A stretch of 64,000 nucleotides of DNA, taken from positions 64,110 through 128,109 of the forward strand of contig JFAX01000001.1 in assembly GCA_000585015.1 (NCBI GenBank), in the 5' to 3' direction. The notes beneath the pieces were generated by a model. It was given only the letters and a program-made list of their open reading frames with translations, was not told where the DNA came from and did not search any database. Origin of the DNA: Candidatus Accumulibacter adjunctus (GTDB taxonomy: Bacteria; Pseudomonadota; Gammaproteobacteria; Burkholderiales; Rhodocyclaceae). Positions 24,245 through 59,261 of the stretch are shown piece by piece. Position numbers and translations under genes: made by a program. How positions within the stretch are numbered: position 1 is the stretch's first letter; each line of letters opens with the position of its first letter.

Positions 24245-24391
24245 CGCCGGGTCAGGGTGACGGGATCGGTGGCAGCCGGGAAGTGCGCATTATAGGCCCT
24301 CGGCGACCGTCGCCGGGCGACCTCGGCCGGCTATAATCCCGCCTCGCGCGAGCCCAGCGTGGCAAGCCGGTTCCGTCTGGAGACGATGCAA

Positions 24392-25813: not shown

Positions 25814-25867
25814 CCCTGGACTCGCAGCCGGTTCGCCGGCGGCAGCCGCACGCGAAGGTTGGTGCTC

Positions 25868-38725: not shown

Positions 38726-39991
38726 TTACCGGGCCCCATCGCCAGCCCGGTCGCCGGCCCTGCTCGGCCCGGAGACCTCGTGGAGGATTCGTTCCATCCT
38801 CCGGCGCGTCTGTTCGGCCGAGAAGTGGGAGCGGACGAAGGCGAGGCCGTTGGCCCCCATGCGCTCGCGGCGCCCGGCGTCATCGAGCAACTCGCCGATC
38901 AATCTTGCCAGCTGCCGGTCGTCGTCCGGTTCAAAACCCAGTCCCGCCTGCGCCGTGTCGAGAATCCGCCGTGCCTCGCCGCGGATGCCGCACAAAACCG
39001 GCCGTGCACAGGCCATGTAGTCGATCAGCTTGGTGGGGATGGCGCCGTCAAACAAGGGAATGTCCTGCAGCGTGGCCAGGCAGAGATCTGCGGCGCTGAG
39101 ATAGACCCGCGCCTGGTCCTTGGCAACGGGTGGAAGAACGACGACATTGGCCATTTTGCCGCCCGCGACCTCGTCTTCGATCGCACCGCGGCGGAGGCCG
39201 TCGCCAACGAGCACGAAGAGGATGTCGCCGCGCTCGCGCAGCGAACGCGCCGCCCGCAGGATCACCGGGATGTTGTTCGCTTCGCCGAGGGCGCCGAAGT
39301 ACAGGATGACCTTCCTGTCCTCCCAACCGAGAGCATGGCGCGTGCGCGCCGCTCCTTGCGGATCGGGGTACAGCCGGTCGAAATCGACGCCACAGGTGAC
39401 CACCTCGAGCTTCTCCTGTGGCCAGCCGCGCGTGCGGATGTCGTCGCGAATCCCTTCGGTCAGGGCAACGATACGCGCCGACTGGTCGTAGAGCCGCCGC
39501 TCCATCCACGCCATGATGCGGATGAGCGTCCGGTTCCTGAGGATTCCCATCTGCACGGCAGATGCGGGCCACAGGTCGCGGACCTCGATCACGAGCGGAA
39601 TCCGCCGCATGCGGCAGACGAGGGCAGCAGCGAACATCGGAAAGATGGGCGGTGTCGAGGCGAGCACCAGGTCCGGTCTGTCGATGCTGAACAGGCCGGC
39701 GGCGCCGGAGAGCGAGAAGGATGCGAAGCTCAGCAGGCGACCGAGGTAGCTGCGATGCAGCTCGGAGTAGGTGAACGTGCGCAGCACCCTCACCGCGCCA
39801 TCGTGTTCTTCACGCCGCAGGCGACGGTACCACGGCAGGGTTGGCGTGTCGCGCTGCATGTACCCGGTCTCGCCGCTGACGACGGTCACCTCGTGACCAC
39901 GCCCGGCAAGGTAGTGCGCCAGCTCGTAGATGAGTGAATGGCCCGGAGCGCCCGTCCCCTGGTAGTACTGATAGACGATCGCGACCTTCAT
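38726..39991 (-). CDS. glycosyltransferase family 4 (WbuB-like)
   Basis: Trimmed to MKVAIVYQYYQGTGAPGHS. GT-B fold with a C-terminal E..(7)E-type region (PTKLIDYMACARPVL). Start is ATGA-coupled to the upstream GT gene (39988-39991). Confidence 0.82.
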   Translation of the reverse strand: MKVAIVYQYYQGTGAPGHSLIYELAHYLAGRGHEVTVVSGETGYMQRDTPTLPWYRRLRREEHDGAVRVLRTFTYSELHRSYLGRLLSFASFSLSGAAGLFSIDRPDLVLASTPPIFPMFAAALVCRMRRIPLVIEVRDLWPASAVQMGILRNRTLIRIMAWMERRLYDQSARIVALTEGIRDDIRTRGWPQEKLEVVTCGVDFDRLYPDPQGAARTRHALGWEDRKVILYFGALGEANNIPVILRAARSLRERGDILFVLVGDGLRRGAIEDEVAGGKMANVVVLPPVAKDQARVYLSAADLCLATLQDIPLFDGAIPTKLIDYMACARPVLCGIRGEARRILDTAQAGLGFEPDDDRQLARLIGELLDDAGRRERMGANGLAFVRSHFSAEQTRRRMERILHEVSGPSRAGDRAGDGAR

Positions 39992-41235
39992 CGCAGCGCC
40001 TCGTAGATCGCCAGGAGTTTTCCTTCCTCCGCCTCCCAACAGACAGCCTTGCGCGTCTGTCGGAGATTCTCCCGCCAGAAGTCGAGGCGCGCCTCGTCGC
40101 CGAAAAGCTCGTCGATCAGCGAGGCCACGGCCGGGGCACTGCTCATGTCGCCGACGAGGCCAATTCCTCGTCCGGCGACCATGCTCCTGATTTCCGGCAA
40201 GTCGCTGCCGAGTATGGGGACGCCGGCGGCGATGAACTCGAACAGCTTGTTTGGTGTGCAGAAGTAGTTGTTGAGACAGGTCGCCCGGTACGGGATCACG
40301 CCAGCATCAGCCGCGGCGGTATGGCTCAGCAGTTCATGCTGAGGAACCGCGGCCTGGAAGAAGACTCTTTGGGTGCCCGGCTGCCGCCGGGCCTCGCGCG
40401 TCAGTCGCTGCTTCAATGCCCCGTCTCCAAGGATCACCAGGACGATCTCCGGATTCTTCACGTGGCGCATGGCTGCAACCAGCGCCTGCAGGTTCCTGTT
40501 GGCCGACAGGCCGCCCTGGAAGAGGAGAATCTTCCGCGTCGCCGGCAGCCCGAAAAGCTCATGAAAGAGTCGCGAGCTGTGCGTAGCGTCGGTCGCCCTT
40601 TCGGCATTGCTGATGACATGCACCTGGGAGAGCGCATGACGACGGGCGAGTTCGCCGGCGATCGACTGGTTGATGGTCATCACCGCGTCGCAATTGCCAA
40701 TGTAGCGCGCCTCGATCTCTGCCCACCGCCTCCTCTCGCGAGCGGAGAACTCCTGCTCGCTGTAGAGCTCGTGGCTGTCGTAGACCAGGCGCGCAGCGCA
40801 GCCGCGCGCGACCTGGCTGGCGACTGGCAACATCGGCAGATCGTGCGCAACGACGACTCGCGGCGCGAAGCGTGATGCGACGTCGCCGTACAGCCTGGCG
40901 TGAAAGGTCTCCTGATCGACGAGGAACCGCCAGGCGAGCCGCTTCAAGCTGCGCATCATGGCGCCATTCATTGGCAGGCGTCTGGCGAGCTGGCGATACC
41001 CGTAAGCCACTTGCTGTTCGCGCCCTCCCCCCTGGCCGCCAGCGCCTGCGCGGACCACTCTCGGCTCGTCGCGTCGCTCGGTGTCGTCATCCGTCATCGC
41101 CAGGATCGTCACTCGCCAGCCGGCCTTTTCGAGGCTGTCGGCCTGCAGGAGGATTCGCCGGTCGATCTGCCGGTCTGCCGTCAGCATCAGGATCGAGTTC
41201 GATTCGTGGTCCTGACGCGCTGCTGCAGCGTCCAT
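39988..41235 (-). CDS. glycosyltransferase family 4/group 1
   Basis: 415 aa. GT-B features (VAHDLPMLP, YDSHELY, LLFQGGLSANRNL, PNKLFEFIAAGVPIL). Confidence 0.8.
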   Translation of the reverse strand: MDAAAARQDHESNSILMLTADRQIDRRILLQADSLEKAGWRVTILAMTDDDTERRDEPRVVRAGAGGQGGGREQQVAYGYRQLARRLPMNGAMMRSLKRLAWRFLVDQETFHARLYGDVASRFAPRVVVAHDLPMLPVASQVARGCAARLVYDSHELYSEQEFSARERRRWAEIEARYIGNCDAVMTINQSIAGELARRHALSQVHVISNAERATDATHSSRLFHELFGLPATRKILLFQGGLSANRNLQALVAAMRHVKNPEIVLVILGDGALKQRLTREARRQPGTQRVFFQAAVPQHELLSHTAAADAGVIPYRATCLNNYFCTPNKLFEFIAAGVPILGSDLPEIRSMVAGRGIGLVGDMSSAPAVASLIDELFGDEARLDFWRENLRQTRKAVCWEAEEGKLLAIYEALR

Positions 41236-41239
41236 GACT

Positions 41240-42535
41240 TCACCCCCTCAGTCTTGACCAGACGGTCCGAGCCAGGCGCGAGACGGTTGGCGAACGATCG
41301 ACGAAACGGCTCATGTTGCGCCTGAACGATTGCCGGCGCCAATGCTTCGCGTACGTCTGCCGCATGTCCTCTTCGTAGCGACGGATGGTCCGTTGCACGG
41401 TTTCGGCGTCTGCGGCCGGACCGCTCCCGACGCGATGCGATTCGATGAGCCCGATCACGGTCGCTGCCTTGTGCCGGTAGTGCAACTCCTTGGTGTCAAG
41501 GATCGTTTCCCGGCAGTTGCTGATCAGTCTATCCACCAGCTGGCGGTCGCGCATCGCCTCCAGAACCTGCTGAAAATCGCTGGCATCGGCGCTGATGGGA
41601 ATGTAGTGCTCCCATGGCCTGACGATACCGCTGTAGTCGCCCTCTACCAGCACTTGGCAACTGCCGAGCAACCCCGCCTCGAGGACGCGAGGCGAAATCG
41701 CGGTGAATGAGTGGCGCCCGTCGAGGCCTGGGAAGCAGTTTGCCTCGACTTCCTCGAAGGACGCTGCCGGATGGGCGTTGAGGTAGGCCCGGACCCTTCG
41801 CTGAATGTCCCCGCGCGGATCGAGAAGGCTGCTGCCGCTGTTGGCACCAAGGGTGAAGCGGCAATCGCCCAGGAAGTCCAGCCACTGCGGGCCAAGCAGT
41901 GTGCCCTGATCGCCGAGAACGATGTCGGTCGTCAGGCCGGCACGCTTGGCAGGGATCTCCACCCGTTCACCAATCGCCCACTTCGTCTCCCCGATCCTGC
42001 CGAAGTAGGGGGGAAGTCGGCGTGCCCGGTAGCCGATGTCGATCCGCCTGTGGTCGAATGGCCTTCCCTCCTTGGCGAGGAGCGTCGGGTCGACGTACCC
42101 TGTATAGGCAAGGCGTATCGAGCCCTGGCGATGGTAGCGGGGATAGAGGACATTCCAGTGCGAGGAGATCACCGAGAACAAGTGGTCTACCCGCCAGTCG
42201 CACATCCAGTCGTCGAGCAGTTCGTTGCAGTCGTACTCGTCCTGCGGGAACGCAAGCTTCAGTCCTCCGCTGTCGCGGACGAAGCTGTACGTCTCCCTGA
42301 TGTTCAGGAACGTCGCTTCGGCTAGCCAGCGAATCCACAGGAAGGTGACATCGAGAACGATGGCATCGAAGTCGACATCCCGCACGTAATCGGGCAGCGG
42401 CAGCTCCGTGTCGTGGTAGAGGTAGTTGTGCTCGGGAAAGGCGTCGCGCAACGCGAATACATGGTGACACAGGAAGCTCGGGGCCAGGCGAGGGTTCCCG
42501 AGTCGATGCAACACCATGATGTTGAGGCGGCTCAT
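41240..42535 (-). CDS. uncharacterised CgeB-like (Glyco_trans_1_2-type C-terminal half) protein, paralog 1
   Basis: 431 aa. Shares motifs QDEYD, IGYRARRLPPYFGRIGETK, LGANSGSS and SPRVLEAGLLGSCQVLVEGDYSGIV with 44435..45748 and with the C-terminal half of 48158..50833. Confidence 0.7.
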   Translation of the reverse strand: MSRLNIMVLHRLGNPRLAPSFLCHHVFALRDAFPEHNYLYHDTELPLPDYVRDVDFDAIVLDVTFLWIRWLAEATFLNIRETYSFVRDSGGLKLAFPQDEYDCNELLDDWMCDWRVDHLFSVISSHWNVLYPRYHRQGSIRLAYTGYVDPTLLAKEGRPFDHRRIDIGYRARRLPPYFGRIGETKWAIGERVEIPAKRAGLTTDIVLGDQGTLLGPQWLDFLGDCRFTLGANSGSSLLDPRGDIQRRVRAYLNAHPAASFEEVEANCFPGLDGRHSFTAISPRVLEAGLLGSCQVLVEGDYSGIVRPWEHYIPISADASDFQQVLEAMRDRQLVDRLISNCRETILDTKELHYRHKAATVIGLIESHRVGSGPAADAETVQRTIRRYEEDMRQTYAKHWRRQSFRRNMSRFVDRSPTVSRLARTVWSRLRG

Positions 42536-42542
42536 CCCCTTC

Positions 42543-44435
42543 TCAATCGATGAACTGCTGGTGCCACAGCTCCAGGCTCAACAGCGCCCACAGGTTTCGG
42601 CCATAGGTACTCTGGGTATCCAAAACGGCATCGATCGAAAGCGGTCCGTTCAGATAGGGGCGTGAGCGCGCAGCCTGCGATGCGAAGAGGTCGCCGATCA
42701 GCTCACGTGTCGGGCCGGGCCGCTTGAGCCACAGGTTGAGCGGAACCGGGAAGCCCATCTTGTCTCTGCGTTCACGAATCGCGACGGGCAGACGATCCGA
42801 AAAGACCGCTTTGAGCAATCGCTTCAGCTCGCCATTGCGGAACTTGATGTCAGCCGGGATGGTGGCGGCAAACTCGACCAGTGGGTGGTCGAGAAACGGC
42901 ACACGAGCCTCGACGCCATGCGCCATGCTCATGCGATCCTCAACCTGCAGCAGTGCGGGCAGCAAGGTCTTGAAATCGAAGTGAGTCATGGAATCGAAGT
43001 ACGATTCCTTGCCGACATTGCTGCCCCAGAAGATGCTCCTGAACTCTTCGAAGGTCGATCGCTGGTCGAGAAGCTCGGGAGCGATGATCGTCCCGAAAGT
43101 ATTGGCGCGGTTTACCAGGCGCCAGTAGCGCTCATCCCGTTCGCCAAACAGGCCGCCTGCCCAGAACTCCCGCAGCATCGGCTTGTACTGGCGGAGGCTT
43201 TCCAGGTTCGGAATGATCGATTCGTAGGTCACCACGTAATTGCCATTGTGCAGCGAACCTTCGATGGCGCCCTTGATGCACTGCTCGAAATAGGCAACCA
43301 GATAGCGCGCATAACCACCGAAAATCTCGTCGCCTCCCTGGCCTCCCAGAACCACCTTGATGTGCCTGCCGACTTCCTTCGACACCATGTATTGCGGGAA
43401 CGAGCCTGGGCCAGCGACTGGCTGATCGAGATGCCAGATGACCTTGGCTATGTGGTCGACGAAGTCCTGCTCACCGATGTCCGCAACAAAGAGTTCCATG
43501 CTGCGTTCGTCGGCCAAGGCTCTGGCATAAGCGGACTCGTCGAACTCAATGCCGTCGAGGAAGCGCCCGTTGAACGCCTTGAACGGGCCGCTTGGCCGGA
43601 CTTCGCGAGCGAGCGCTGCCAGTAGACTCGAGTCGACACCGCCGCTGACGTAACTGCCGACCTCGACGTCGGCACGTAGATGAATTTTCACCGAGTCATG
43701 CAGCAGCTCGATCAAACGGTTGGTGAACCAGCGCTCCGTATGATCGTAATCGATGTCGTAGTGGACTTCCCAGTAGCGACGAACGAGCTCTTCCTGCCCG
43801 GATGAGAGAATGGCGTAGTGCGCGGCAGGTAGTTGCCAAACTCCCTCCATGAGCGTCTTTTCGCCAAGGCAGAACTGGAAGGTCAAATAGTCAGCCAATG
43901 CGGCCTGGCTCACACGGCGTCGTCCCAGAAAGGGCAGCAGTGCCTTGGCTTCGGAAGCAAAATAGAACCCATGGTCGGTTCTGGTCCAGTACAGCGGCTT
44001 GATGCCAAAGCGGTCCCGCGCCAGGAAAAGCTTCTGCTCACGGGCATCCCAAATTGCCAGAGCGAACATGCCGCGCAGGTGACTGACGCAGTCGACTCCC
44101 CAGCGTTGAAAAGCACGCAGCACGACTTCCGTATCGGAGCGCGTGCGGAAAGAGTGTTCACCGAGTTCCGCACGCAACTCCAGGTAATTGTAAATCTCTC
44201 CGTTGTAGATGATGGTGAAACGTCCATCATCACTGTGCATCGGCTGCGCTCCCGACTCCAGGTCGATGATCGCCAAGCGCACGTGACCCAGTCCCACCTG
44301 GCCACTCTCGGAAGCCCATTTGCCTGCCCCGTCGGGGCCGCGATGGCGAATTTCGTGCATGCCGACATCGAGATCCCGGGACGAGGCAGACTGCTCCCGG
44401 ATGCCCGTTGCGAGGAAACCAAAGATTCCACACAT
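42543..44435 (-). CDS. asparagine synthase family glutamine-hydrolysing amidotransferase (AsnB-like 1)
   Basis: Trimmed to the ATG at 44435 (MCGIFGF, the Ntn Cys2 glutaminase start). The ATG overlaps the upstream stop (ATGA). Has YNGEIYNY and the PP-loop SGGVDSS. Confidence 0.9.
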   Translation of the reverse strand: MCGIFGFLATGIREQSASSRDLDVGMHEIRHRGPDGAGKWASESGQVGLGHVRLAIIDLESGAQPMHSDDGRFTIIYNGEIYNYLELRAELGEHSFRTRSDTEVVLRAFQRWGVDCVSHLRGMFALAIWDAREQKLFLARDRFGIKPLYWTRTDHGFYFASEAKALLPFLGRRRVSQAALADYLTFQFCLGEKTLMEGVWQLPAAHYAILSSGQEELVRRYWEVHYDIDYDHTERWFTNRLIELLHDSVKIHLRADVEVGSYVSGGVDSSLLAALAREVRPSGPFKAFNGRFLDGIEFDESAYARALADERSMELFVADIGEQDFVDHIAKVIWHLDQPVAGPGSFPQYMVSKEVGRHIKVVLGGQGGDEIFGGYARYLVAYFEQCIKGAIEGSLHNGNYVVTYESIIPNLESLRQYKPMLREFWAGGLFGERDERYWRLVNRANTFGTIIAPELLDQRSTFEEFRSIFWGSNVGKESYFDSMTHFDFKTLLPALLQVEDRMSMAHGVEARVPFLDHPLVEFAATIPADIKFRNGELKRLLKAVFSDRLPVAIRERRDKMGFPVPLNLWLKRPGPTRELIGDLFASQAARSRPYLNGPLSIDAVLDTQSTYGRNLWALLSLELWHQQFID

Positions 44436-45748
44436 CAGCTTCTTCTCCCTTTGATGAATCGCTTGAGGACTGGCTTCAACTCGCTCCGGACGTTGCCCGG
44501 AAGGCGCGCCCACAGGGTATAGCCCAGCTGCCTTGCCAGCGACGGCACCTCGGCTGGGTCAGTAATGACGGCTCGTATTGGGGAGGTGGTGATCGATGAT
44601 GGTTGGTCAGGAAGCGAATTCCGGTCGCTCGCTGCCGCCAACCTTCCGGGATCGCTCGGCATACCGGCGACGGCACGCTGAATCTCCTCATCCACCATGA
44701 GCACGAAAGCCTGATAAGAGTATTTGCCGGAGGCGATCACGTCACGATACGCGCGCTCAGCCATGGCGTCCACGTAGGCGCCATCCTGCAACCTGGAAAC
44801 CACTTCGTCGAGGTTACTCCCGTCCTTTCTAAGCGCGATGAAGTGCTCTCCAGCTTGAACGACCCCGGAGTAGCTCCCTTCGAAGAGCACGAGAACTGTT
44901 CTGAAGGCGATTGCCTCGAAGACTCGCGGAGAAACTTGGTTCATCGCGCCGTCGATCTCATGCGGACGAACCAGCTTCTCATAGACCGACTCGTCGGCTG
45001 TCGCGGGATGCTCCTTCCTGAAATCCGCGATACGGTCGCCAAGGGAACCATCCCAGTCGAAGACATTGCTTCCGCTCTCGGATCCCAGCATGGCGCGACA
45101 AGACATCATGAACTCATACCACTTGGGCCCGTATATCCTGCTCTCTTCGCTCCATGAGATATCCGACGATATCTGGTGCACGTCACAGTAAGTCTTGACC
45201 ATTCTGCCAACAGCGACTTTTTCGATCCCCAGCTGTCCGTAGCGGATTGGCAAGGGACGTCCGCGATAGCCTATCAGCAGCTGCCGCTGAGAGGGCGGAG
45301 ACAAGTGGGGAATCGCGTCTCCGAGATGCTGCGGCACATAGCCAGTGAGATTGCTGACAAAACGGACGCCGGGAAACTCCGCAGTCGGGTATATTTTTTC
45401 GATCTGCCTCGTCGGCACCACAGTAAATACAAGGTGGAAGCCCAGCTGTTTGATCCAGTGCCAGGCGCGATGCGTATGATCGTACTCGTCTTGGATAAAG
45501 AGGAACTTTGCCCCACCATATTCGGACAGTGCTTTTCCGAGTGAGGGGGATACCTGGTCAAACGGTAGTCGCACGCTGTAGTGGAGACCCACCGCCGCGA
45601 AGCGGGACAATTCAGCAGAAAATTCAGAATACTGATCCGCATGACAGAAGAAGAACCTGTGCCGAGATTGCCTGGCAAAACAGGCCAAATGCTCGAAGAC
45701 GGTGTTTGTGTAAGTCTGGGTCGCGTTATAGACAAGAAGAATATTCAT
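44435..45748 (-). CDS. uncharacterised CgeB-like protein, paralog 2
   Basis: Start chosen at the ATG at 45748 (MNILLVYNATQ), by alignment to LNVALLFDPAS in the 891-aa fusion; 45757 is also possible. Motifs QDEYD, IGYRGRPLPIRYGQLGIEK, LGSESGSN and SPRVFEAIAFRTVLVLFEGSYSGVV. Confidence 0.7.
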   Translation of the reverse strand: MNILLVYNATQTYTNTVFEHLACFARQSRHRFFFCHADQYSEFSAELSRFAAVGLHYSVRLPFDQVSPSLGKALSEYGGAKFLFIQDEYDHTHRAWHWIKQLGFHLVFTVVPTRQIEKIYPTAEFPGVRFVSNLTGYVPQHLGDAIPHLSPPSQRQLLIGYRGRPLPIRYGQLGIEKVAVGRMVKTYCDVHQISSDISWSEESRIYGPKWYEFMMSCRAMLGSESGSNVFDWDGSLGDRIADFRKEHPATADESVYEKLVRPHEIDGAMNQVSPRVFEAIAFRTVLVLFEGSYSGVVQAGEHFIALRKDGSNLDEVVSRLQDGAYVDAMAERAYRDVIASGKYSYQAFVLMVDEEIQRAVAGMPSDPGRLAAASDRNSLPDQPSSITTSPIRAVITDPAEVPSLARQLGYTLWARLPGNVRSELKPVLKRFIKGRRS

Positions 45749-45950
45749 CTGCACCATTTGCTTACAGGAAACGATGACCGAAACGCACGCCGACCGGGAT
45801 CGAAGCTTCAGATGGGGCTCGCGAACGCGACATCGCTTCATCAAGGACCCCACTCGCAATCAAGCGTCTCTCGGGCCTGTCGGCGATCGCGCGCGTTCGT
45901 CTTGTCATCAGATAGGGTAGCGTACAGGAGCAACGAAAGACGGCCGCCTC

Positions 45951-47855
45951 CTAAGAGTCAATATCGGCTCTCGAAAGCGATCCGGCACGCCACCACCCGG
46001 AGCGGTAGATGCATAGCCATTCCGATAGACTGATCCAGCGCCAAAGCTCCCAAGAGTGATTGCAATGCCCTGATTGATGTTCTTGCCAAAGCGTAGCCAT
46101 CTTTTGACCGTCGTAGCCTGGCAGGGAATGCAGAGCGGTATCCATGATTCGTTCGTGCGCCCAGCCATGCAGGCTGTCGCGTAACCAGTGATCAAGGGGG
46201 GCGGCATAGCCGACCTTGTCGGCTCGCCAACGGATCGATCGGGGAATGGTTCTCCCCGCAGCCATCCGCAATATCCACTTTTGCCAACCGTTCCTGACGT
46301 AGAGGTCGTCCGGAAGGGAAACGCAGAAGTCTACCAGCTCATGGTCGAGAAACGGCAATCTTCCTTCGCGAGAGAAAGCCATCGCGTTTCTGTCGGCATA
46401 GCGGAGGAGCATTGGCAGGCTGTTGTACAACAAGGCTTCTGAGATCGTCCGACGCAACCGGAAGCCAGGCTTCGCCGGCGCGGTGCCAACGCAGTCAGGA
46501 TAGTGGGAAACCGAAGAAGATGGTCGGCCAAGCTTGTGAAGTTCGTCGGTGGAGTAGGCGACCGATGCGTTGAACCGCCTCTGCGCTCCCTGGTACTGCT
46601 CGCTGGCGATACGCAGCCGACGATTGAACTTTGCCGACTCCCTGATCGCCAGAGCGAGGCGACCCTGATCAAGCAGGTCAAGTTGCCGCTGCCGAAAGTA
46701 GAACTGATAACCCGCGAGCAGCTCGTCCGCTCCCTGTCCGTCGAGCAAGACTGTCGTATCATGCTGACGTGCGAGGCGCGCGACGCACCACTGCAGGTAG
46801 ATTGAGGCAGAAAGGAACGGCTCTTCCTGATGCCAGTGAAGCAGTGCCGACTCCTGTGCCAGTCGCAAGGAGTCCGGCGTCACTTGAAATGAATTGACGC
46901 CGGTGTGTGTGGCGACCGCTTCGACTTCCTTGCCTTCCGACATCGTCGGATCCTCTGGAAACACGGCGGAGAACGTGTTTTGGGTAAAACTTGCGGAACT
47001 GCGTTCACGGGCGAGGTACCCGACAATGACCGAGGAATCCAGTCCGCCTGAAAGGCTTGATCCGACAGGCACGTCAGCACGCAGTCTGAGAGTGACGCTT
47101 CGCTGCAGCAGTTCGGAAAATCGGTCTACGGCCTCGCGCGGCGTCAGGTCGCTGTTGATCGATGTGTAATCCGGGGTCCAGTAGCGCCAGCGCTCCTCTT
47201 CGCTTCCATCCTCACGGAACCAAGCCGCACTGGCGGGAGGAAACCGCTCGATATTCTCGAAGAAGCTCAGTTCATCGTCCTCGTACCAAGCCCCACTGGC
47301 AAAGCGTTCGAGAGCGCGCTCGCTGACGCTGCAGCGGACCAGCGGATGAACCAGGATCGCCTTCATCTCGGAAGCCATGACGAGGGTATTGAAGCGTCCT
47401 CTGCCTAGGAAAAGGGGCTTTTCGCCAAAGCGGTCGCGAGCCACCAACATTCTGCGGCAGCGTTCATCCCACAAGGCAAAAGCGAACATCCCGTTGAAGC
47501 GCTGCAGAGCCGCTTCCCCCCACTGCTCAAAGGCTGTCAGCAAGACTTCGGTGTCGCTACGGGTACGGAACACATGGCCGAGCGCCGCGAGCTCGCTGCG
47601 CAATTCCAGGTAGTTGTAGATTTCCCCGTTGAAGACGAGACGCAAGTTGCCGTCTGCCGTTGCCATCGGTTGATCTGCCAAGTGCGAAATGTCGATGATC
47701 GACAAACGACGATGCGCCAAGCCAACTCGGCCTCCTTGTCGAATCCAGTTCGATCCGTTGTCGGGGCCCCGGTGAACCAGTCGATCGCGCATCGCCGAAA
47801 GCAGGTCCTCGCGTATGGGTAGCGCCGGGGAAATGACACCAACAATGCCGCACAT
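45951..47855 (-). CDS. asparagine synthase family glutamine-hydrolysing amidotransferase (AsnB-like 2)
   Basis: Trimmed to the ATG at 47855 (MCGIVGV), with GAGGA 10 nt upstream. Has FNGEIYNY and the PP-loop SGGLDSS. Confidence 0.9.
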   Translation of the reverse strand: MCGIVGVISPALPIREDLLSAMRDRLVHRGPDNGSNWIRQGGRVGLAHRRLSIIDISHLADQPMATADGNLRLVFNGEIYNYLELRSELAALGHVFRTRSDTEVLLTAFEQWGEAALQRFNGMFAFALWDERCRRMLVARDRFGEKPLFLGRGRFNTLVMASEMKAILVHPLVRCSVSERALERFASGAWYEDDELSFFENIERFPPASAAWFREDGSEEERWRYWTPDYTSINSDLTPREAVDRFSELLQRSVTLRLRADVPVGSSLSGGLDSSVIVGYLARERSSASFTQNTFSAVFPEDPTMSEGKEVEAVATHTGVNSFQVTPDSLRLAQESALLHWHQEEPFLSASIYLQWCVARLARQHDTTVLLDGQGADELLAGYQFYFRQRQLDLLDQGRLALAIRESAKFNRRLRIASEQYQGAQRRFNASVAYSTDELHKLGRPSSSVSHYPDCVGTAPAKPGFRLRRTISEALLYNSLPMLLRYADRNAMAFSREGRLPFLDHELVDFCVSLPDDLYVRNGWQKWILRMAAGRTIPRSIRWRADKVGYAAPLDHWLRDSLHGWAHERIMDTALHSLPGYDGQKMATLWQEHQSGHCNHSWELWRWISLSEWLCIYRSGWWRAGSLSRADIDS

Positions 47856-48157
47856 GTCAGCCGTCCTCGCAGCCAGCGCCCCGACACATCGCGGGCACGA
47901 CGCGAAGGCGCAGGAAGCCAGCATCCGGATGATGCGCTGATACTTGGGGGGACCACGATCGCTGGTCGCCTTGCGCTGATGGCGCTGCGGCATCAGCGGT
48001 TGTCCCTTGAGCAAGATCCAGCCTGAGCCGACGAGACGCGGAACGCTGCCGGGAGCGACTCCCCGCCGAGAGACGGCGACCCAGAAGGTCTTTGAAGTCT
48101 CGAACGGATGAATCGCTGAGGCTCAAGATCGCGAGGTGGAATCCAGTGCTCCGCACG

Positions 48158-50833
48158 CTAGCCCCCCTTGACGATCTTCCAGATCCTGGAACGAACACTC
48201 AGTGGCACCTTTGAATAGACTATTCGTGCGAGCCGGTTTGCCATGGGTTGCTGTGCGACTGCGGCATGCACCCTACGCAGAGAAGGAGCGCCGTACCGCA
48301 ACAGCAGTTGCTTCCCCATCCGGAGCACAGCAGCCCTGCTCTCCGCACGCTGCGCCGCCGACTCCGTTGGGCTCCCCGCACCCGGGTCGCTCTTGTCTGC
48401 CAGCGATTGCAGCAGCTTCTGCTGAATTCCCTGAAAGGACTCCTTCCCGTCCAGCACATCCGCAGCACCAGCCAGACCCAAAGGAATGGCGGGAAGGCAC
48501 GGACTGACCACACCTGCGTCGCTCACCACATAGACCGCGCCGTACATCGGTCTTCTCGGCACTCGGCGAAGACAGCGTGCCCGCAGATCCTCATCGACGC
48601 ACTCGACGAATGCCCGATAGGAGTATCTTCCAGAAACAATGACCTCAGAATACGCCCTTTCAGTCATCGAATGGATGAGATCATCGTTCTGCAGTTTGCG
48701 CACGACCTCTTCGAAGTTCGAAAAGTCCTTCTTCAGTGCAATGTAGTGCCGATTCGGCTCCACGACTCCGGAGTAGTCGCCTTCGAAAAGGATCAGTGCC
48801 GTGTGCAGCCGGATTGCCTCAAAGATCTTCGGCGAAACCTGATTCATGCGGATCTTGCCGTCATGCTCGCGCAGGACGGTGTTCCAGACTTCCGTGAAGG
48901 AGACTTTGGGGTTTCGCTCCTTGATGCGAGCGATCTGTTGGCTCAGGGAGCCGTCAAAATCGAACACATTGGAGCCGCTTTCAGTTCCCAGAGTGGCCCG
49001 TGCGGAGCCAAGAAACTCGTACCAAGCATCGCCATAGATGCGCGCTTCCGCCTCGCAGGAGATGTCGACCGGCAGGCCCATGGCTTCAGAGAGCCGCTTG
49101 ACCTCGGTGCCAATCACATACTTTTCATGGCCGAGCTGGCCGTATATTTCTGGCAGTCGGCGCCCCCGGTAGGCGATCGCCTTGCTTCGCTCGGCGAGAG
49201 AGGTCACGAAGCGATCGATCCCTGCCGCTTCCGGAACATACCCGGTAAGCGTCGGGAGAAAATCCGTTGCGGGAAATCTGTAGGCCGGATAGACAGCCTC
49301 TCGCTGTTCCAGCGGAACACAGGTATAGACCAGATCAAATCCCAATCGATCCATCCACGTCCGGGCGCACTCGACTGCTTCGTACTCGTCCTGGATGAAA
49401 AGCACCTTCAGTCCGTGGAATGATTCCAAGGCGATGGCAAAATTCTCGACAAGGTGGTGCGGCAGCGAGACGCGGATCGAATAATGAACGATGACGACGT
49501 CAAAGAGCGAGAAGTCGATGCTACCAAATGTCTCGATTGTCGAAGTAGCGCCGGAAACGTTGGTCGCCGGTACGAAGGTGAAATCATGCGCAGAATAGCG
49601 CCGAAATGCCCGGATGTGCTCGGAAACCGTGCCCACGTGACAAGACGCCGGGTCGAACAGAAGCGCCACGTTCAACGGCACTGTCGATCCGCGCGCGCGC
49701 CGCGAGAGTGCGTTCAGTTCCGCAGCAACGGTTGTGAAGCGGCTGTCGTAGGAATTTTCGCGCGCCAACTCGCGTCGCTGGCAAAGCAAGGCGGGATCGT
49801 CCCGGAGGCTGCTCATGCGAGTGATGGCTTCGGCGAACTCTGCTGCGCTACGGGCAAACCGGAGAACGCCGGAGTGGACAGCATGCCTGGCCAAAGGATC
49901 GATCGGCACGGAAACGACCGGCAACCCGCAAGCGATATACTCGAATGTCTTGAGCGGAAGCGAATTGCGGATCCATTCGTCCTGAACGAACGGTATGATT
50001 CCAACGGACGCCCGCAGCATTTCGCCGGCGAAATCCTTCGGGTTCATCGGCCCAAGCAGTCGTACGTTCTCGCGCTTCCGTAGTCTGCTCAACCCGACAG
50101 ATTCCAGGCAGGGTCCGGCAAAACGAAATTCGTATTCTGGCAGGAGCACCGCAAGCGCGTGCAGGAGTTCATAGTCCAGGCGGGCATTGAGCGCACCCTG
50201 ATAAATTACGACGGGCGCGCGCTCGCCCTCGGCTTGCGTGCAGTTGGCGGAGTCATCCAGTTCGGCAAAGAACTCAAAGTCGCATCCGTTCTCTGCAACC
50301 ACGGCGGGTCCGCGATAGCCACAGTTAGACCGGAGTTCCGCCAGGACAGGTTCGGTGACGGCAACGACCAGATCAATTTCGGCGGTCAGTCGCCGAACTG
50401 ATTCGGTAATAACTGCCGAGGTGGACATCGCGGAAGACGGGGTGAAATAATCTTCAGTTGCATGGTAAACGCGCAGGGATCGTGGCAGGGCAGAAATCAA
50501 GCGCTCGTAGTGCAAGGAATCGTAAATCCAGAGCAAGGGGCACTTGATTCCCCGATGTCTCAACAGTTCAAGGATGGATTCGGTCTGCCTTGGCGAAATC
50601 GGTGCGCTGACATTGATCAGGTCAATGCCAGCAAGGCCGGCGTTGGCCGCCTGAAAGTCCTTCCCGACCAGCCGCTGATTCTGGAGAAATATTACGGGGA
50701 TATGCCGGGCGAACCGGGTTGCATAATGGTATCGATTGCTGCGCCGCTCCGTTGTCCAATCCGACCACGTCAGGAACAGGACGGCATCGAATTGATCGAG
50801 GGCGGGTGCTGATGCGAGCTGTTCCGTTTTCAT
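48158..50833 (-). CDS. two-module protein: N-terminal group 1 glycosyltransferase (TuaH-like) fused to CgeB-like unit (paralog 3)
   Basis: 891 aa. Residues 1 to about 400 are GT-B (VVIYQGALNARLD, LKTFEYIACGLPVV). From about 420 on they are colinear with the two stand-alone CgeB-like proteins (QDEYE, IAYRGRRLPEIYGQLGHEK, LGTESGSN, SPKIFEAIRLHTALILFEGDYSGVV). Confidence 0.78.
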   Translation of the reverse strand: MKTEQLASAPALDQFDAVLFLTWSDWTTERRSNRYHYATRFARHIPVIFLQNQRLVGKDFQAANAGLAGIDLINVSAPISPRQTESILELLRHRGIKCPLLWIYDSLHYERLISALPRSLRVYHATEDYFTPSSAMSTSAVITESVRRLTAEIDLVVAVTEPVLAELRSNCGYRGPAVVAENGCDFEFFAELDDSANCTQAEGERAPVVIYQGALNARLDYELLHALAVLLPEYEFRFAGPCLESVGLSRLRKRENVRLLGPMNPKDFAGEMLRASVGIIPFVQDEWIRNSLPLKTFEYIACGLPVVSVPIDPLARHAVHSGVLRFARSAAEFAEAITRMSSLRDDPALLCQRRELARENSYDSRFTTVAAELNALSRRARGSTVPLNVALLFDPASCHVGTVSEHIRAFRRYSAHDFTFVPATNVSGATSTIETFGSIDFSLFDVVIVHYSIRVSLPHHLVENFAIALESFHGLKVLFIQDEYEAVECARTWMDRLGFDLVYTCVPLEQREAVYPAYRFPATDFLPTLTGYVPEAAGIDRFVTSLAERSKAIAYRGRRLPEIYGQLGHEKYVIGTEVKRLSEAMGLPVDISCEAEARIYGDAWYEFLGSARATLGTESGSNVFDFDGSLSQQIARIKERNPKVSFTEVWNTVLREHDGKIRMNQVSPKIFEAIRLHTALILFEGDYSGVVEPNRHYIALKKDFSNFEEVVRKLQNDDLIHSMTERAYSEVIVSGRYSYRAFVECVDEDLRARCLRRVPRRPMYGAVYVVSDAGVVSPCLPAIPLGLAGAADVLDGKESFQGIQQKLLQSLADKSDPGAGSPTESAAQRAESRAAVLRMGKQLLLRYGAPSLRRVHAAVAQQPMANRLARIVYSKVPLSVRSRIWKIVKGG

Positions 50834-50835
50834 GC

Positions 50836-51621
50836 TTAGATGGCAGAATCAAAAGAGCCCTTCGCGCGGCGGAATGCCGCGAGCCCGAAATGAAAGATGA
50901 CCCAAGAAAGCACGCCAACGAAGCCAAGGCCGACGGCGCTGGGGAATTCATGGGCAATGAGGATGGAGCGGTACGCGTCGGCAATCTGGTAAAAGGGATT
51001 GGCCAGCGAAACCCTTTGAATGATCGCAGGCATGCTGTCAAAAGGGTAAAAAATCGGGGTCATGAACATGATCGCCGTCAGCAGGGTAGGCAGAATCTGC
51101 AGGACGTCGCGGACGAATACGGCGATTGCCGACAGCCACATCCCGAGCGCGATGATCCAGAAAAACTGCAGCAACATCACCAGCGGCAGCAACACCACGT
51201 GCGCGGTGACGGGCGTTCCCGCCCACACGAACAACACGAAGAGGAAGAAGAGGCTGACCGCGAGATTCACGGCACCGACGAGAGCGCCGGCAATTGGCAG
51301 GAGCTCGGTCTTGAACGCCAGGTTCTTGACCAGCCCTGCTGCACCGACCACGGAACTCGCGGCACCCATGAGCGCTTCTGTTGTTGCAATCCAGGGCCCG
51401 TAGCCGGTGATGAGCCAGATGACGTAAGCGAGAGTCGTCTCGGAACCGGGCAGCCTGACCTTGAAGACGAAGCCAAAGATGTAGGTATAGAGGGCGAGCA
51501 TGAACAGCGGGTTGGATACGGCCCAGAAGCTCCCCAGGGAGGACCCGAGATAACGGTCGCGCAGATTCATCTTGAAGAGATTGATCAGCAGGCGGAAGTC
51601 GTAGCGAGTAAACCCGAACAC
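50836..51621 (-). CDS. wzm: ABC-2 type polysaccharide export permease (Wzm-like)
   Basis: ORF trimmed to the GTG at 51621, 8 nt after GGAG and 17 nt after the upstream stop. This gives 261 aa starting VFGFTRYDFRLLINLFKMNLRDRYLGSSLGSFWAV, the typical Wzm N-terminus, with six predicted TM segments. Confidence 0.82.
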   Translation of the reverse strand: MFGFTRYDFRLLINLFKMNLRDRYLGSSLGSFWAVSNPLFMLALYTYIFGFVFKVRLPGSETTLAYVIWLITGYGPWIATTEALMGAASSVVGAAGLVKNLAFKTELLPIAGALVGAVNLAVSLFFLFVLFVWAGTPVTAHVVLLPLVMLLQFFWIIALGMWLSAIAVFVRDVLQILPTLLTAIMFMTPIFYPFDSMPAIIQRVSLANPFYQIADAYRSILIAHEFPSAVGLGFVGVLSWVIFHFGLAAFRRAKGSFDSAI

Positions 51622-54032: not shown

Positions 54033-55706
54033 TCAGGCGCTTCGTCGCAAGAGGGGATCGCCAGCGAGCAGCGCGCCGTAGATCCGATCGAACCGTGCTG
54101 CCCCCGCCGAAGCGGAATGCCATTTCAGAGCGAAATCCCTGCTGCGCCGGCCGATCTCACGCCGCTTCTCGGGATCGGCAATCAGGTCGCGCAGGACAGA
54201 CTCGACGGTGTCCGGCGTCGCGCTGACAATGGGTAGTTCTTCGGCATAATCGGGGAGCTCCTCGCGCACGCTCTCCAGCCACTCGGGACGGATGAAGCAG
54301 ATTACCGGCTTCGCGAGCATCATCGCTTCACGGATGTTTGCGCCGAACCAGCCATACGTCAGCATGTCCAGGAAGATGTCTGCCTGCGCCTGCAGGAAGC
54401 GAACCTCCCTGTTGGGAATGCCGGTTGGCTCGATCAGGTCCAGTACCAGACCCTCGGTGCGGAAGCGCTCGATCAAGGGGAGATACACATGGGAGGACTT
54501 GATGTTGACTCCATCGCTACGGGTTCTCTCTTCGCGGCGTCCGACGGCGTGATAAAGACGCACCCCACCGTCAGGTAGCGACGGCAGACGATACTGCTCG
54601 GGAATCGCCATTTCCGGATGCCACAGTCCGGGATCCAGGCAGTAGAACTCCGGGACTTCGTGGACCCTTCGGTCGGCGTTGCAATCTACCCGGTTTCCGC
54701 CGAGCGTGCATTGAAAGTCAGCGACGGAGTTCCTGAACCGTCCCCAGGCGAGGTTGCGTTCGTCACTGCAGACTGAGGGCTCGTGTTGCCAGCGACAGAT
54801 CGAACAGACCGACTCCGGACCCCATTTGGAGAAGGCCGTCTGAGAAACGCCGTCGAGGCAACCGTTGTGCGAGTAGACCACCTTCTTCCCGAGTGCCTTG
54901 AGGAGGTGGATTTCCGCGTGCATCCCGAGGCGCTGTGCCACAGCCGACTGGACACCCCAGCCGAAAGCGATGCCATGGGCGTTTGAGAAATGGAAAACGT
55001 CGTAACCGTAGATGGCCAGAAGGTAGAAATCGAGCTCTCCTTCGAGACCCTCCGGGATATCACCGCCGAGGCGGTAATCCTCACCATGGTAGTAAATCCA
55101 GTTTGCAGGATTGCTGTCCCAGTTATAGACATCGGCTTTCCAACCGAGGTGGCGCAGGGCGCGCGAGAGATACCAGACGTTGTAATAGGACTGGCCGCAG
55201 AACAGCACCCGCCGGGACGCCAGCGCATCGAAAGCCGGCTTGAGGGTGTGCGCGGCGCAGTGGAGAAAGGAGATCTCGGCCAGCAGGTCGTCCGCTGCTG
55301 GGGAGTCGCAACGATCCACCGTCAGGCCGGCGGCCGACCGGACCAATCGGCGCAGTTCGCGGACAGGTGCATCCATGCTCGTGGGGTTTGCCGATCCTTC
55401 GGCGCCGACCGCGGCGCGAAGGGCTGCAACGCGGCCGGGGAGATCATGAAGACGACCAACGGATCGCAGCAGCTCGGCCTTGAGCTCGGTTTCCAGTTCC
55501 GCCCTGAGCTCGGCCCTGAGCTCGGCCTTGAGTTCCGCCATGGGCCCGGCCTTGAGTTCCGCCATGATCTCGGGTTTGAGCTCTGCCTTGAGGTCCGGCT
55601 TCAAGGATGAATTCAGCCTGCTCTTCAGCTCTTGCTTCAACTCGGCGGGTACGGTGTTGACGCCTGCACGCGCCACACGCTTGACAAGACGATCGTACGA
55701 CCCCAC
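54033..55706 (-). CDS. hypothetical protein: N-terminal (A/P)ELK tetrapeptide repeat region + glycosyltransferase-like GT-B C-terminal part
   Basis: 557 aa. Residues about 21-78 read ELKQELKSRLNSSLKPDLKAELKPEIMAELKAGPMAELKAELRAELRAELETELKAELL. The C-terminus (FLDMLTYGWFGANIREAMMLAKPVICF) resembles the sugar-donor half of GT-B enzymes. Confidence 0.6.
   Translation of the reverse strand: MGSYDRLVKRVARAGVNTVPAELKQELKSRLNSSLKPDLKAELKPEIMAELKAGPMAELKAELRAELRAELETELKAELLRSVGRLHDLPGRVAALRAAVGAEGSANPTSMDAPVRELRRLVRSAAGLTVDRCDSPAADDLLAEISFLHCAAHTLKPAFDALASRRVLFCGQSYYNVWYLSRALRHLGWKADVYNWDSNPANWIYYHGEDYRLGGDIPEGLEGELDFYLLAIYGYDVFHFSNAHGIAFGWGVQSAVAQRLGMHAEIHLLKALGKKVVYSHNGCLDGVSQTAFSKWGPESVCSICRWQHEPSVCSDERNLAWGRFRNSVADFQCTLGGNRVDCNADRRVHEVPEFYCLDPGLWHPEMAIPEQYRLPSLPDGGVRLYHAVGRREERTRSDGVNIKSSHVYLPLIERFRTEGLVLDLIEPTGIPNREVRFLQAQADIFLDMLTYGWFGANIREAMMLAKPVICFIRPEWLESVREELPDYAEELPIVSATPDTVESVLRDLIADPEKRREIGRRSRDFALKWHSASAGAARFDRIYGALLAGDPLLRRSA
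55470..55649. repeat. 12-nt in-frame tandem repeat (about 11 clear plus 4 degenerate units, consensus GAGCTCGGCCTT on + strand)
   Basis: Units were counted directly: cagctcggcctt, gagctcggtttc, cagttccgccct, gagctcggccct, gagctcggcctt, gagttccgccat, gggcccggcctt, gagttccgccat, gatctcgggttt, gagctctgcctt, gaggtccggctt, and so on. They encode the AELK repeats of the 54033..55706 CDS. Confidence 0.9.
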
Positions 55707-55730: not shown

Positions 55731-56435
55731 TCATTCTACCGCCAGCAGCGCCCGTACTCCAGCTCTGCCGACATTTGCCAATGAATCGAGGATCGAGAGC
55801 CCCGGCAAGAAGTCGCCTCCACCTGCCTGTGGATACACGGGATGGCGAAAGCCCTGGTATGCCAGAGACACTCCGGCCCGGGCGAATGCTTCATCGTCCT
55901 GATAGCCGGAGGCTCCGCCGCCGCACAGGTAGCGTGTGCCGCCGACTCTGCGTGTCAGGTTGATCAACAGATCGCTCCCCTGCCCATCGCAGCCGAGAGA
56001 AGAGGACGTTACACAGTGGTCATACCGCAAGCCAATCTGCGCGGCGATCGCCTTGATCATCGCGCTGTTGTAGCGCGCCAGGTTGCTCTCCGGTGCAAGA
56101 ACCAGTGGCTCAAGCCAAGCCATGGTTTCCTTGTAGAACGGTGCTCGCGAGTACGTTGCTGTCAGTGTCTTCAGCAGCTTGCTGCGCCACGGCTGCTCGT
56201 CAGCCCATTCGATTTCGTTGATCGCCCGGACTCCATGGAAAGCTCGCTTGATCGGCCCGGTGACCCAACGTGCCTGGTCGCCACTGCGCAATCGTACGCG
56301 ATTGCACCAGACGCCGCCGGTCTTGGGGAACTGTACGTCATCAAGAAAGATGAACACGTCGCTGCGTGCGATCTTGTCGAAGTAACCGAGCCAGGGCAGA
56401 AAGTTGGGCTGGTGGATGGAAACCGTCCTGTTCAT
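55731..56435 (-). CDS. WbqC family protein
   Basis: Trimmed to the ATG at 56435 (MNRTVSIHQPNFLPWLGYFDKI, the hallmark WbqC N-terminus). The ATG overlaps the upstream stop (ATGA). Confidence 0.85.
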   Translation of the reverse strand: MNRTVSIHQPNFLPWLGYFDKIARSDVFIFLDDVQFPKTGGVWCNRVRLRSGDQARWVTGPIKRAFHGVRAINEIEWADEQPWRSKLLKTLTATYSRAPFYKETMAWLEPLVLAPESNLARYNSAMIKAIAAQIGLRYDHCVTSSSLGCDGQGSDLLINLTRRVGGTRYLCGGGASGYQDDEAFARAGVSLAYQGFRHPVYPQAGGGDFLPGLSILDSLANVGRAGVRALLAVE

Positions 56436-57739: not shown

Positions 57740-57770
57740 TTTCGTCAGTCGCTCCAAAGGGTCAATGGGA

Positions 57771-59207: not shown

Positions 59208-59261
59208 GTGCTTTTCTTCCTTCCTGCCACGAGAGCGCCAGAAAGACATCGCGTGTAATCT

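Follow-up and report, generated by a model that had tools for sequence, protein, structure and literature searches.

Which glycan is made by a locus in which AsnB-type amidotransferases alternate with copies of a protein unit that fits no curated family? The question is raised by a 64,000-nucleotide stretch of contig JFAX01000001.1 of Candidatus Accumulibacter adjunctus (the window). From 38.7 kb to its end, the window holds a single, tightly packed glycan operon on the minus strand, in which Wzt2, Wzt1, Wzm, F, A2, U2, A1, U1, GT415 and GT437 follow one another in that order (Table 1). A sequence-only reading had described the AsnB genes (A1 to A3), two stand-alone copies of the unit (U1 and U2, there called CgeB-like) and a fusion gene (F, which carries the third copy, U3), and all of these open reading frames (ORFs) were found again with the same coordinates and strand. 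We consider it likely that this is an ABC-transporter-dependent surface-polysaccharide locus of the Bordetella type, most likely for a lipopolysaccharide (LPS) O-antigen, and that its polymer is built of 2,3-diacetamido-2,3-dideoxy-hexuronamides. The reading draws on gene order, domain content, orthology to Bordetella loci and a conserved neighborhood, all of which were observed, and on a GT-B fold predicted for the U unit. From these we infer the substrates, the chemistry and stage of amidation, the assignment of units to linkages and the LPS destination of the polymer.

Orthology to Bordetella O-antigen loci points to a polyuronamide

Bordetella loci were found by searching with an F homologue from Achromobacter. 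In Bordetella hinzii (L084) and Bordetella bronchiseptica 99-R-0433 (L082), genes for an AsnB protein, WbmH/G/F-like dehydrogenases, a fourth dehydrogenase, Wzm, Wzt and a methyltransferase are followed by an F-like gene (868 to 876 aa), two further AsnB genes and a gene for an 873- to 876-aa protein that joins a U domain to a GT4 domain. A1 was 75 to 76% identical to the Bordetella AsnB658 and AsnB636 proteins, and A2 was 70 to 72% identical to the AsnB635 proteins. F aligned with F868 of B. hinzii and F876 of B. bronchiseptica at 46 to 47% identity in the N-terminal half and 50 to 51% in the U part, and the WbmH/G/F-like dehydrogenases encoded next to the window were 77 to 86% identical to those of the Bordetella loci. 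The Bordetella fusion of U and GT4 domains (GT873 in B. hinzii) is the counterpart of U1 and GT415, which are separate genes in the window. Its U domain was 31 to 34% identical to the window U units by BLAST, and its GT4 part was 26 to 27% identical to GT415 (27% over aa 525 to 810 of GT873). The window and the Bordetella loci have in common export by Wzm/Wzt, three AsnB genes and a further U domain that precedes a GT4 domain. Proteins of B. bronchiseptica MO149 fall into the same 90%-identity clusters as the homologues of F, A1 and A2, and the F homologue of that strain is annotated as a "bi-functional glycosyltransferase." MO149 carries a divergent O3-type wbm locus that was acquired horizontally (PMC3849452).

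The chemistry of the B. hinzii polymer is known. Its O-antigen repeats the trisaccharide [->4)-beta-GlcNAc3NAcAN-(1->4)-beta-GlcNAc3NAcAN-(1->4)-alpha-GalNAc3NAcAN-(1->], in which all sugars are uronamides, and it bears a 4-O-methyl residue as a cap (PMC12041961). Since orthologues 70 to 76% identical to A1 and A2 lie in the O-antigen locus of a species whose polymer is fully amidated, A1 and A2 are likely to form uronamides as well. The proposal of a polyuronamide-like glycan, made earlier from the window sequence, therefore gains strong support, by homology, from the orthology to Bordetella loci and from the all-2,3-diacetamido-hexuronamide polymer of B. hinzii.

Genes for the matching precursors lie on the same contig, upstream of the window. 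In order, they encode an aminotransferase, a protein of the UDP-GlcNAc 2-epimerase family (Epimerase_2), four short-chain dehydrogenases and a second aminotransferase, followed by A3; the WbpE-like, Epimerase_2 and WbmH/G/F-like genes among them occupy the region 1 to 9 kb past the window end. Three of the dehydrogenases matched the solved structures of WbmH (2q1w; 9.5e-157), WbmG (2pzk; 4e-148) and WbmF (2pzj; 3e-138), and the first aminotransferase was WbpE-like (2.7e-130). The PDB entries 2q1w, 2pzk and 2pzj are those of WbmH, WbmG and WbmF, which were proposed to convert UDP-ManNAc3NAcA to UDP-L-GalNAc3NAcA (PMC2279256).

By homology, the WbpE-like aminotransferase, the 2-epimerase and the WbmH/G/F-like dehydrogenases would supply UDP-2,3-diacetamido-uronic acids. 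A1, A2 and A3 would then amidate the C6 carboxylate, with Cys1 releasing ammonia from glutamine and the PP-loop domain activating the carboxylate with ATP. Amidation would most likely take place on the UDP-sugars, possibly with one paralogue for each sugar species. The three U units and three GT4-type domains (the N-terminal half of F, GT415 and GT437) would assemble the chain, attached to a lipid carrier, on the cytoplasmic side, and Wzm together with the two Wzt proteins would export the finished chain.

The AsnB proteins are glutamine-dependent amidotransferases

A1, A2 and A3 matched PF13537 (GATase_7), PF13522 (GATase_6) and PF00733 (Asn_synthase) far above the Pfam gathering scores, with Asn_synthase at 1e-91 in A1 and 5e-76 in A2 and GATase_7 at 2e-44 in A2. 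In all three, the catalytic Cys directly follows the initiating Met (MCGIFG in A1, MCGIVG in A2 and MCGIAG in full-length A3), and the SGGxDS motif of the PP-loop is kept (SGGVDS, SGGLDS and SGGMDS, respectively). Against TIGR01536, with a cutoff of 267 bits, A1 scored 516, A2 431 and A3 367. With Cys1 and the PP-loop kept and all scores above the cutoff, the description of these proteins as true glutamine amidotransferases was borne out. The gene for A3 runs off the end of the window, as had been seen earlier, and is complete on the same contig (L080, 7408-9285), where it encodes 625 aa from a start at about 64072 in window numbering. The three paralogues share 33 to 39% identity, and A1 is 79 to 82% identical to its orthologues in other genera.

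The setting of these genes suggests that the AsnBs act on the C6 carboxylate of a uronic acid and not on aspartate. By family description, they resemble WbpS of Pseudomonas aeruginosa O6, WbqG of Escherichia coli O121 and PGN_1234 of Porphyromonas gingivalis, and uronamide formation depends genetically on WbqG and PGN_1234 (PMC7468200). An identity as PEP-CTERM/XrtA amidotransferases was rejected because of the scores against TIGR03108 (eps_aminotran_1), which were 425.7 bits for A1, 393.8 for A2 and 344.7 for A3, below the cutoff of 816.9.

It is hardly credible that the AsnBs carry out other chemistry, such as housekeeping synthesis of asparagine, coupling of the carboxylate to an amino acid or amine, or acetamidino formation. 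The three paralogues are embedded in one glycan operon, and AsnB genes lie by glycosyltransferase genes in 53 of the 60 large loci surveyed below. The retention of Cys1 makes glutamine-derived ammonia the expected nucleophile, and orthologues are encoded in the locus of B. hinzii, a species with a fully C6-amidated O-antigen. The asparagine synthase model TIGR01536 was nevertheless the sole model passed above its cutoff, the family includes lactam and lasso-peptide cyclases, and the nearby ATP-grasp and GNAT genes point to other acylations at the locus. As for acetamidino groups, these are made in related pathways by WbpG/PseA-type enzymes, not by AsnB.

The U unit is predicted to be a complete GT-B glycosyltransferase

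At normal thresholds, U1 and U2 were assigned to no Pfam or NCBIfam family, and U1 matched no Pfam family at an E value of 0.01 or below. U2 scored 15 bits (E = 0.025) against PF13524 (Glyco_trans_1_2), whose gathering score is 25, and U1 did not match this model at all. This model gave a weak match at E <= 1 in 30 of 45 U relatives (best, 5.6e-6), and the part resembling it comprises the last ~80 to 140 residues of the U catalytic part; the PF13524 match of F falls in its N-terminal glycosyltransferase (GT) domain, outside U3. The likeness to Glyco_trans_1_2 that had been seen earlier at the C-terminal end of the unit thus holds, weakly. The GT4/GT1 models Glycos_transf_1 and Glyco_trans_1_4 found no match in any U unit, whether stand-alone (U1 and U2) or within F (U3). 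When the U profile was aligned by hhalign with X557, GT437 and the N-terminal half of F, the scores were insignificant, and a fourth U copy in X557 was rejected. A sequence search of the PDB with a profile of the three copies returned only a 36-residue match to POGLUT1 (HYIxxKxDxSN-like; E = 0.09). Pfam scans of the U units reported no GT90 family. A GT90/CAP10 reading, to which a "CAP10 domain" label on U1 in UniRef also pointed, was dropped, as the label could not be reproduced and the Foldseek search described next placed GT4-type enzymes at the top and POGLUT2 just at rank 35.

Structure models gave a clearer result. AlphaFold (AF2) models had pLDDT values of 90.3 for U2 and 90.1 for U1 and consisted of alternating beta-strands and alpha-helices followed by C-terminal helices. 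Nearly all of the top 50 Foldseek matches in the PDB were GT-B glycosyltransferases, aligned over both halves (345 to 560 columns), and included BshA, PimA, PimB', MshA, TarM, SdgB, the MMP mannosyltransferase and T4 alpha-glucosyltransferase. The best E values were 1.8e-7 for U2 and 6e-9 for U1 (BshA; TM scores, 0.51 and 0.57), the matches to BshA, PimA, MshA, TarM and T4 alpha-glucosyltransferase had E values between 6e-9 and 1e-6, and the highest TM scores were 0.51 and 0.59; sequence identity to the matches was just 9 to 13%. The whole U unit is thus modeled as a complete GT-B glycosyltransferase fold. Its N-terminal half had been left unassigned in the sequence-only reading. By the models, that half is the N-terminal Rossmann domain of the GT-B fold.

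The best structural likeness, extending over both Rossmann domains, was to retaining GT-B enzymes of the GT4 type (BshA, PimA, MshA and TarM). Unlike those enzymes, the U unit bears the signature motifs QDEY, YRGRxLPxxYGxxGxxK, ESGSN and SPRxFEA. The likeness to Glyco_trans_1_2 and to GT90/CAP10 is local, and neither label is supported as a membership of U. In the U2 model, QDEY ends a beta-strand of the N-terminal Rossmann domain. YRGRxLPxxYGxxGxxK lies on the first strand and the next loop of the C-terminal domain, and ESGSN is separated from SPRxFEA by about 45 residues, a stretch that includes two helices. By analogy with GT4 enzymes, QDEY and YRGR could plausibly serve on the acceptor side and in diphosphate binding. 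R/K and E residues that never vary stand at the start of and inside the C-terminal domain (YRGRxLP...K, ESGS and SPRxFEA). It is unlikely that the U units are non-catalytic.

The four motifs, first noticed in the sequence-only reading, are present in U1, U2 and U3 alike. By BLAST, U2 and U3 were 44% identical over 378 aa (E = 7e-99), U1 and U3 31% over 267 aa (E = 4e-40), and U1 and U2 29% over 292 aa (E = 7e-37). The colinearity claimed for the whole length of the units needs qualification: the first ~90 residues of U1 had no BLAST similarity to the other copies, while the same domain is present in the U1 model. The description of F as a fusion of a GT1-type protein and the unit proved correct, the GT1-type half being matched over about aa 118 to 370. 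F consists of a TuaH-like GT1/GT4-type domain (aa ~1 to 385), U3 (aa ~386 to 760) and a basic helical tail. Its N-terminal half matched Glyco_trans_1_4 and Glyco_trans_1_2 at aa 204 to 368 and the NCBIfam TuaH model at 4.7e-23.

U genes keep company with AsnB and Wzm/Wzt across phyla

When 1.84 billion representatives were searched with a U profile, 3,795 clusters matched at E <= 1e-3, of which 2,274 also passed E <= 1e-30. These clusters span Proteobacteria, Planctomycetota, Chloroflexota, Cyanobacteria, Acidobacteriota, Verrucomicrobiota and others. The only annotation of the U1 subfamily was "hypothetical protein," and we found no biochemical characterization of the U family in the published literature. 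Several members hold two or three U domains. In the giant proteins P0269, P0273, P0287 and P0290 (1,550 to 2,344 aa), between one and three U domains are fused to GT2, GT4, TPR or radical-SAM/SPASM domains, in the manner of multi-domain glycan synthases.

Gene neighborhoods were examined in 79 U-bearing loci, one genome per species, which were found by peptide patterns of the U2/U3 type, so that the statistics best describe the U2/U3-like part of the family. The window proteins were compared by BLAST with all ORFs of these loci. The loci came from Beta-, Alpha-, Gamma- and Deltaproteobacteria, Myxococcota, Bdellovibrionota, Planctomycetota, Chloroflexota, Cyanobacteria and Vampirovibrionales/Obscuribacterales, and further ones from Acidobacteriota, Verrucomicrobiota, Ignavibacteria, Acidimicrobiales, Legionella and one Saccharimonadales metagenome-assembled genome (MAG). 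An AsnB homologue was present in 65 of the 79 loci. Sixty of the loci measured 15 kb or more; AsnB was present in 53 of these and Wzm/Wzt in 45, while 50 held at least two U copies and 32 at least two AsnB copies. A WbmF/G/H-like trio lay within 10 kb of a U gene in 24 to 36 of the 79 loci, in several phyla. Whether the unit keeps its place beside AsnB and Wzm/Wzt in other genomes was a question put earlier, and the survey answers it: the adjacency is kept across phyla. U genes were also seen in the Saccharimonadales MAG (L029), in two Chloroflexota loci (L033 and L050) and in an Acidimicrobiales locus (L059), frequently accompanied by AsnB and WbmF/G/H-like genes. These lineages may lack classical LPS, in which case the polymer would be attached elsewhere.

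The close association of U and AsnB genes could also mean that each U unit forms a physical unit with its neighboring AsnB, one such module per residue type, with amidation on the lipid-linked chain or by channeling; this is a stronger form of the module suggested in the sequence-only reading. In 40 of the 79 loci, U and AsnB genes lie on the same strand no more than 400 bp apart. In the window, U2 and A1 overlap by 1 nt and A1 and U1 are 7 nt apart, and the triplet U2-A1-U1 is kept in several genera. For the B. bronchiseptica amidotransferases, a completed chain was not excluded as the substrate, but a sugar nucleotide was judged the likelier one (PMC2615507). Against such a module, the Bordetella loci and two further Accumulibacter loci have two AsnB genes side by side (F-A2-A1-U) and not interleaved, and no AsnB domain was present in five giant U-containing proteins examined. 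Further, conservation across genera is much higher in the AsnBs (79 to 82% identity) than in the U units (55 to 60%), which we read as favoring small, conserved UDP-sugars as the AsnB substrates. We therefore regard a coupled module as unlikely, and prefer amidation of UDP-sugars ahead of chain building.

The locus was assembled from old paralogues

Outside Accumulibacter, orthologues were 54 to 60% identical to U1, 55 to 67% to U2 and 43 to 55% to U3. Each copy was at a distance of 0.31 to 0.39 from its orthologues in other genera and of 0.60 to 0.83 from its paralogues in the window. Since each copy is nearer to its orthologues elsewhere than to the other copies, an origin by local duplication was rejected. 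This comparison, called for when the three copies were first noted, indicates assembly of the locus from ancient paralogues.

Two layouts were recognized among related loci. In the first (Polaromonas, Dechloromonas and one Comamonadaceae genome), the order is X557, Wzt2, Wzt1, Wzm, U2, A1 and U1, and the loci of the Polaromonas and Dechloromonas type lack F and the upstream A2. Relatives of this layout with the X557/two-Wzt exporter were found in Sedimenticola and Cuspidothrix. The second, that of two further Accumulibacter loci (L052 and L067), consists of F, A2, A1, U1, GT415 and GT437 and lacks U2; GT437 and GT415 co-occur in L002, L006 and L052. The window looks like a recombinant in which both layouts are joined, F-A2 being followed by U2-A1-U1. 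Spacers of ~300 nt between F and A2 and ~200 nt between A2 and U2 break the otherwise tightly coupled operon, and they may be the seams of this mosaic. From ~42 kb onward, the G+C content across the glycan locus is 0.57 to 0.62 (about 0.59 overall), down from about 0.64 to 0.65. The drop is consistent with horizontal acquisition and is usual in acquired polysaccharide loci.

Product of the locus and limits of the Bordetella comparison

The same enzymology could serve a different product: a capsule, an exopolysaccharide, a protein-linked glycan, or a polymer whose uronic acids are not of the 2,3-diacetamido type. The last of these runs counter to the high-identity orthologues of WbmF/G/H and WbpE, which point to the 2,3-diacetamido pathway. 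Capsule genes of the KpsC/S/E/D type were not seen among the scanned ORFs. Several features do leave room for a destination other than LPS. Neither a WaaL ligase nor an initiating transferase was identified in the window, the N-terminal half of F resembles TuaH of teichuronic acid synthesis, U domains are present in loci of Chloroflexota, Acidimicrobiales and Saccharimonadales, lineages that may be without LPS, and the extracellular polymeric substances (EPS) of Accumulibacter are abundant (PMC11320575). On the other side stand the Wzm/Wzt exporter with C-terminal extensions of Wzt and the orthology to Bordetella species with characterized O-antigens. We judge a different product to be very improbable, and retain an LPS O-antigen as the most likely one.

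Some observations weigh against a Bordetella-type polyuronamide. The U units exceed the threshold of no curated GT family in Pfam or NCBIfam. A1 to A3 score well under the cutoff of TIGR03108, a family said to hold WbpS and WbqG. No WbpA, WbpB or WbpD homologue was seen in the upstream flank as far as the WbpE-like gene, where the examined flank ends. The published analyses of Accumulibacter EPS mention no uronic acids, diacetamido sugars or amides (PMC11320575). Moreover, the window differs from the Bordetella loci in an extra unit, U2, between A2 and A1; in two Wzt proteins and X557, where Bordetella has one 480-aa Wzt and a methyltransferase; and in a modification sub-cluster with formyltransferase/GNAT, ATP-grasp and WbqC-like genes. 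Since these features are absent from the Bordetella loci, the polymer need not match that of Bordetella.

Relation to described systems

The sequence-only reading had taken the gene arrangement to be undescribed, which does not hold. Homologous loci are present in B. hinzii and B. bronchiseptica 99-R-0433, and MO149 shares the clusters of F, A1 and A2. Three amidotransferase genes (wbmC, wbmI and wbmZ) were already reported in a single B. bronchiseptica polyuronamide locus, whose O-antigen is a partly amidated homopolymer of L-GalNAc3NAcA (PMC2615507). This classical wbm locus of B. bronchiseptica and Bordetella parapertussis resembles the window in its dependence on an ABC transporter, its three amidotransferase genes and its WbmF/G/H pathway; it also encodes a periplasmic deamidase, WbmE. 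Alternation of GT and AsnB genes was published for Acidovorax oryzae RS-2, where orf1714-1723, the receptor locus of phage AP1, comprises UDP-ManNAc3NAcA genes, wzm, wzt, a terminator gene and then GT, GT, AsnB, GT, AsnB, GT and GT (PMC11597636). The RS-2 paper recognized neither a distinct GT family nor a uronamide role of AsnB (PMC11597636). Compared by published gene order, RS-2 has the same alternation as the window, and the Acidovorax/Paracidovorax loci L019, L020, L024 and L038 of our sample carry U-A1-U-A2. The RS-2 transferases would accordingly belong to the U family. With multi-AsnB polyuronamide loci published for Bordetella and a GT/AsnB cluster for RS-2, the window does not represent a new kind of system.

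What we did not find in the literature was any report of the non-GT4 transferases as one large GT-B family without a curated model, of the consistent link of that family to AsnB, WbmF/G/H and Wzm/Wzt across phyla, or of the Accumulibacter mosaic version with its extra unit. In a survey from 2026 of the nucleotide-sugar genes of Accumulibacter, UDP-ManNAc3NAcA is among the accessory pathways, and a term search of that survey gave no match for amidotransferases (PMC12925313). We tentatively put forward a wider idea, which may well prove wrong: that U is a distinct GT-B family, without a Pfam or NCBIfam model, of dedicated chain builders for 2,3-diacetamido-hexuronamide glycans, and that its linkage to AsnB reflects functional dependence. 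The transferases might need amidated donors or form a complex with the amidotransferase. If U is indeed dedicated to uronamide glycans, surface polymers of the polyuronamide type, which to date have been described chiefly in Bordetella, would be a widespread class of glycan.

For Candidatus Accumulibacter, a key wastewater phosphorus remover whose extracellular glycans are poorly known, the locus gives a testable prediction of a surface polymer and ties that polymer to the chemically defined O-antigens of Bordetella. The analysis also flags a large glycosyltransferase family without a curated model that is associated with AsnB, WbmF/G/H-like and Wzm/Wzt genes in many phyla. Characterization of one member would allow thousands of "hypothetical" genes to be annotated and would identify the polymerizing enzymes of the Bordetella 2,3-diacetamido-uronamide O-antigens, which are pursued as synthetic vaccine antigens.

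Gene junctions, exporter and flanking genes

Table 1. Features of the glycan operon, in window coordinates
Feature	Position	Strand	Description
GT437	38726..39991	-	GT4-type; Pfam Glyco_trans_4_4 (9e-22) and Glycos_transf_1 (4e-17)
GT415	39988..41235	-	GT4-type; Pfam Glycos_transf_1 (8e-15) and Glyco_trans_4_4
U1	41240..42535	-	431 aa; most divergent U-domain GT-B glycosyltransferase (predicted)
A1	42543..44435	-	630 aa; AsnB-family glutamine-dependent amidotransferase
U2	44435..45748	-	437 aa; stand-alone U-domain GT-B glycosyltransferase (predicted)
A2	45951..47855	-	634 aa; AsnB-family glutamine-dependent amidotransferase
F	48158..50833	-	891 aa; bifunctional glycosyltransferase, TuaH-like N-terminal half and U3 C-terminal half
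Wzm	50836..51621	-	ABC-2 permease; PF01061 (1.2e-16); 261 aa as called in L080
Wzt1 and Wzt2	51639-52853, 52850-54025	-	PF00005 in both; 4-nt overlap
X557	54033..55706	-	N-terminal ELKAELK-type repeats; weak PF13524/PF00534 at aa 430-537
Modification sub-cluster	55731..62198	-	Between A3 and X557; Pfam matches
A3	62195..64000, cut by window end	-	AsnB-family; Asn_synthase (6e-89)

Most junctions in the operon are tight. U2 and A1 had been described as coupled through an ATGA overlap; the genes do overlap, through TGATG, and the ATGA form sits instead at the junction of the GT415 stop and the GT437 start. The 7-nt gap between A1 and U1 is as described earlier, and U1 is separated from GT415 by 4 nt. 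GT437 probably starts at the ATG at 39991. For U2, an alternative ATG at 45757 yields the 440-aa form found in databases, where a protein of Candidatus Accumulibacter adjunctus is 100% identical to U2.

In the exporter, each Wzt protein continues for ~150 aa beyond the C-terminal side of its ATPase domain without a further Pfam match. The Wzt pair, which was found together with X557 in 22 of the 79 loci, is possibly a heterodimeric ATPase. Orthologues of X557 that are 59 to 78% identical adjoin the Wzt pair in other genera, and X557, whose C-terminus is weakly GT-B-like, could be a chain terminator or chain-length regulator. The Wzt C-terminal extensions and the coiled-coil-like X557 suggest capping and control of chain length.

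The modification sub-cluster contains genes for a WbqC-like protein, a fusion of a formyltransferase and a GNAT domain, a 478-aa protein without a family, a methyltransferase, an ATP-grasp protein and a metallophosphoesterase. Upstream of A3 (L080, 5279-7404) lie the fourth short-chain dehydrogenase and an aminotransferase that resembles ArnB and perosamine synthetase (4-aminotransferase-like). Together with the sub-cluster, these two may make a 4-amino, N-acylated sugar. As a speculation, A3 may serve, with the sub-cluster, a modified or capping residue.

Genes for GDP-mannose pyrophosphorylase/PMI and GDP-mannose 4,6-dehydratase lie on the plus strand at 24359-26944, at a distance of ~12 kb. 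Since genes for methylmalonyl-CoA mutase and propionyl-CoA carboxylase intervene, the two GDP-mannose genes probably do not belong to the glycan locus.

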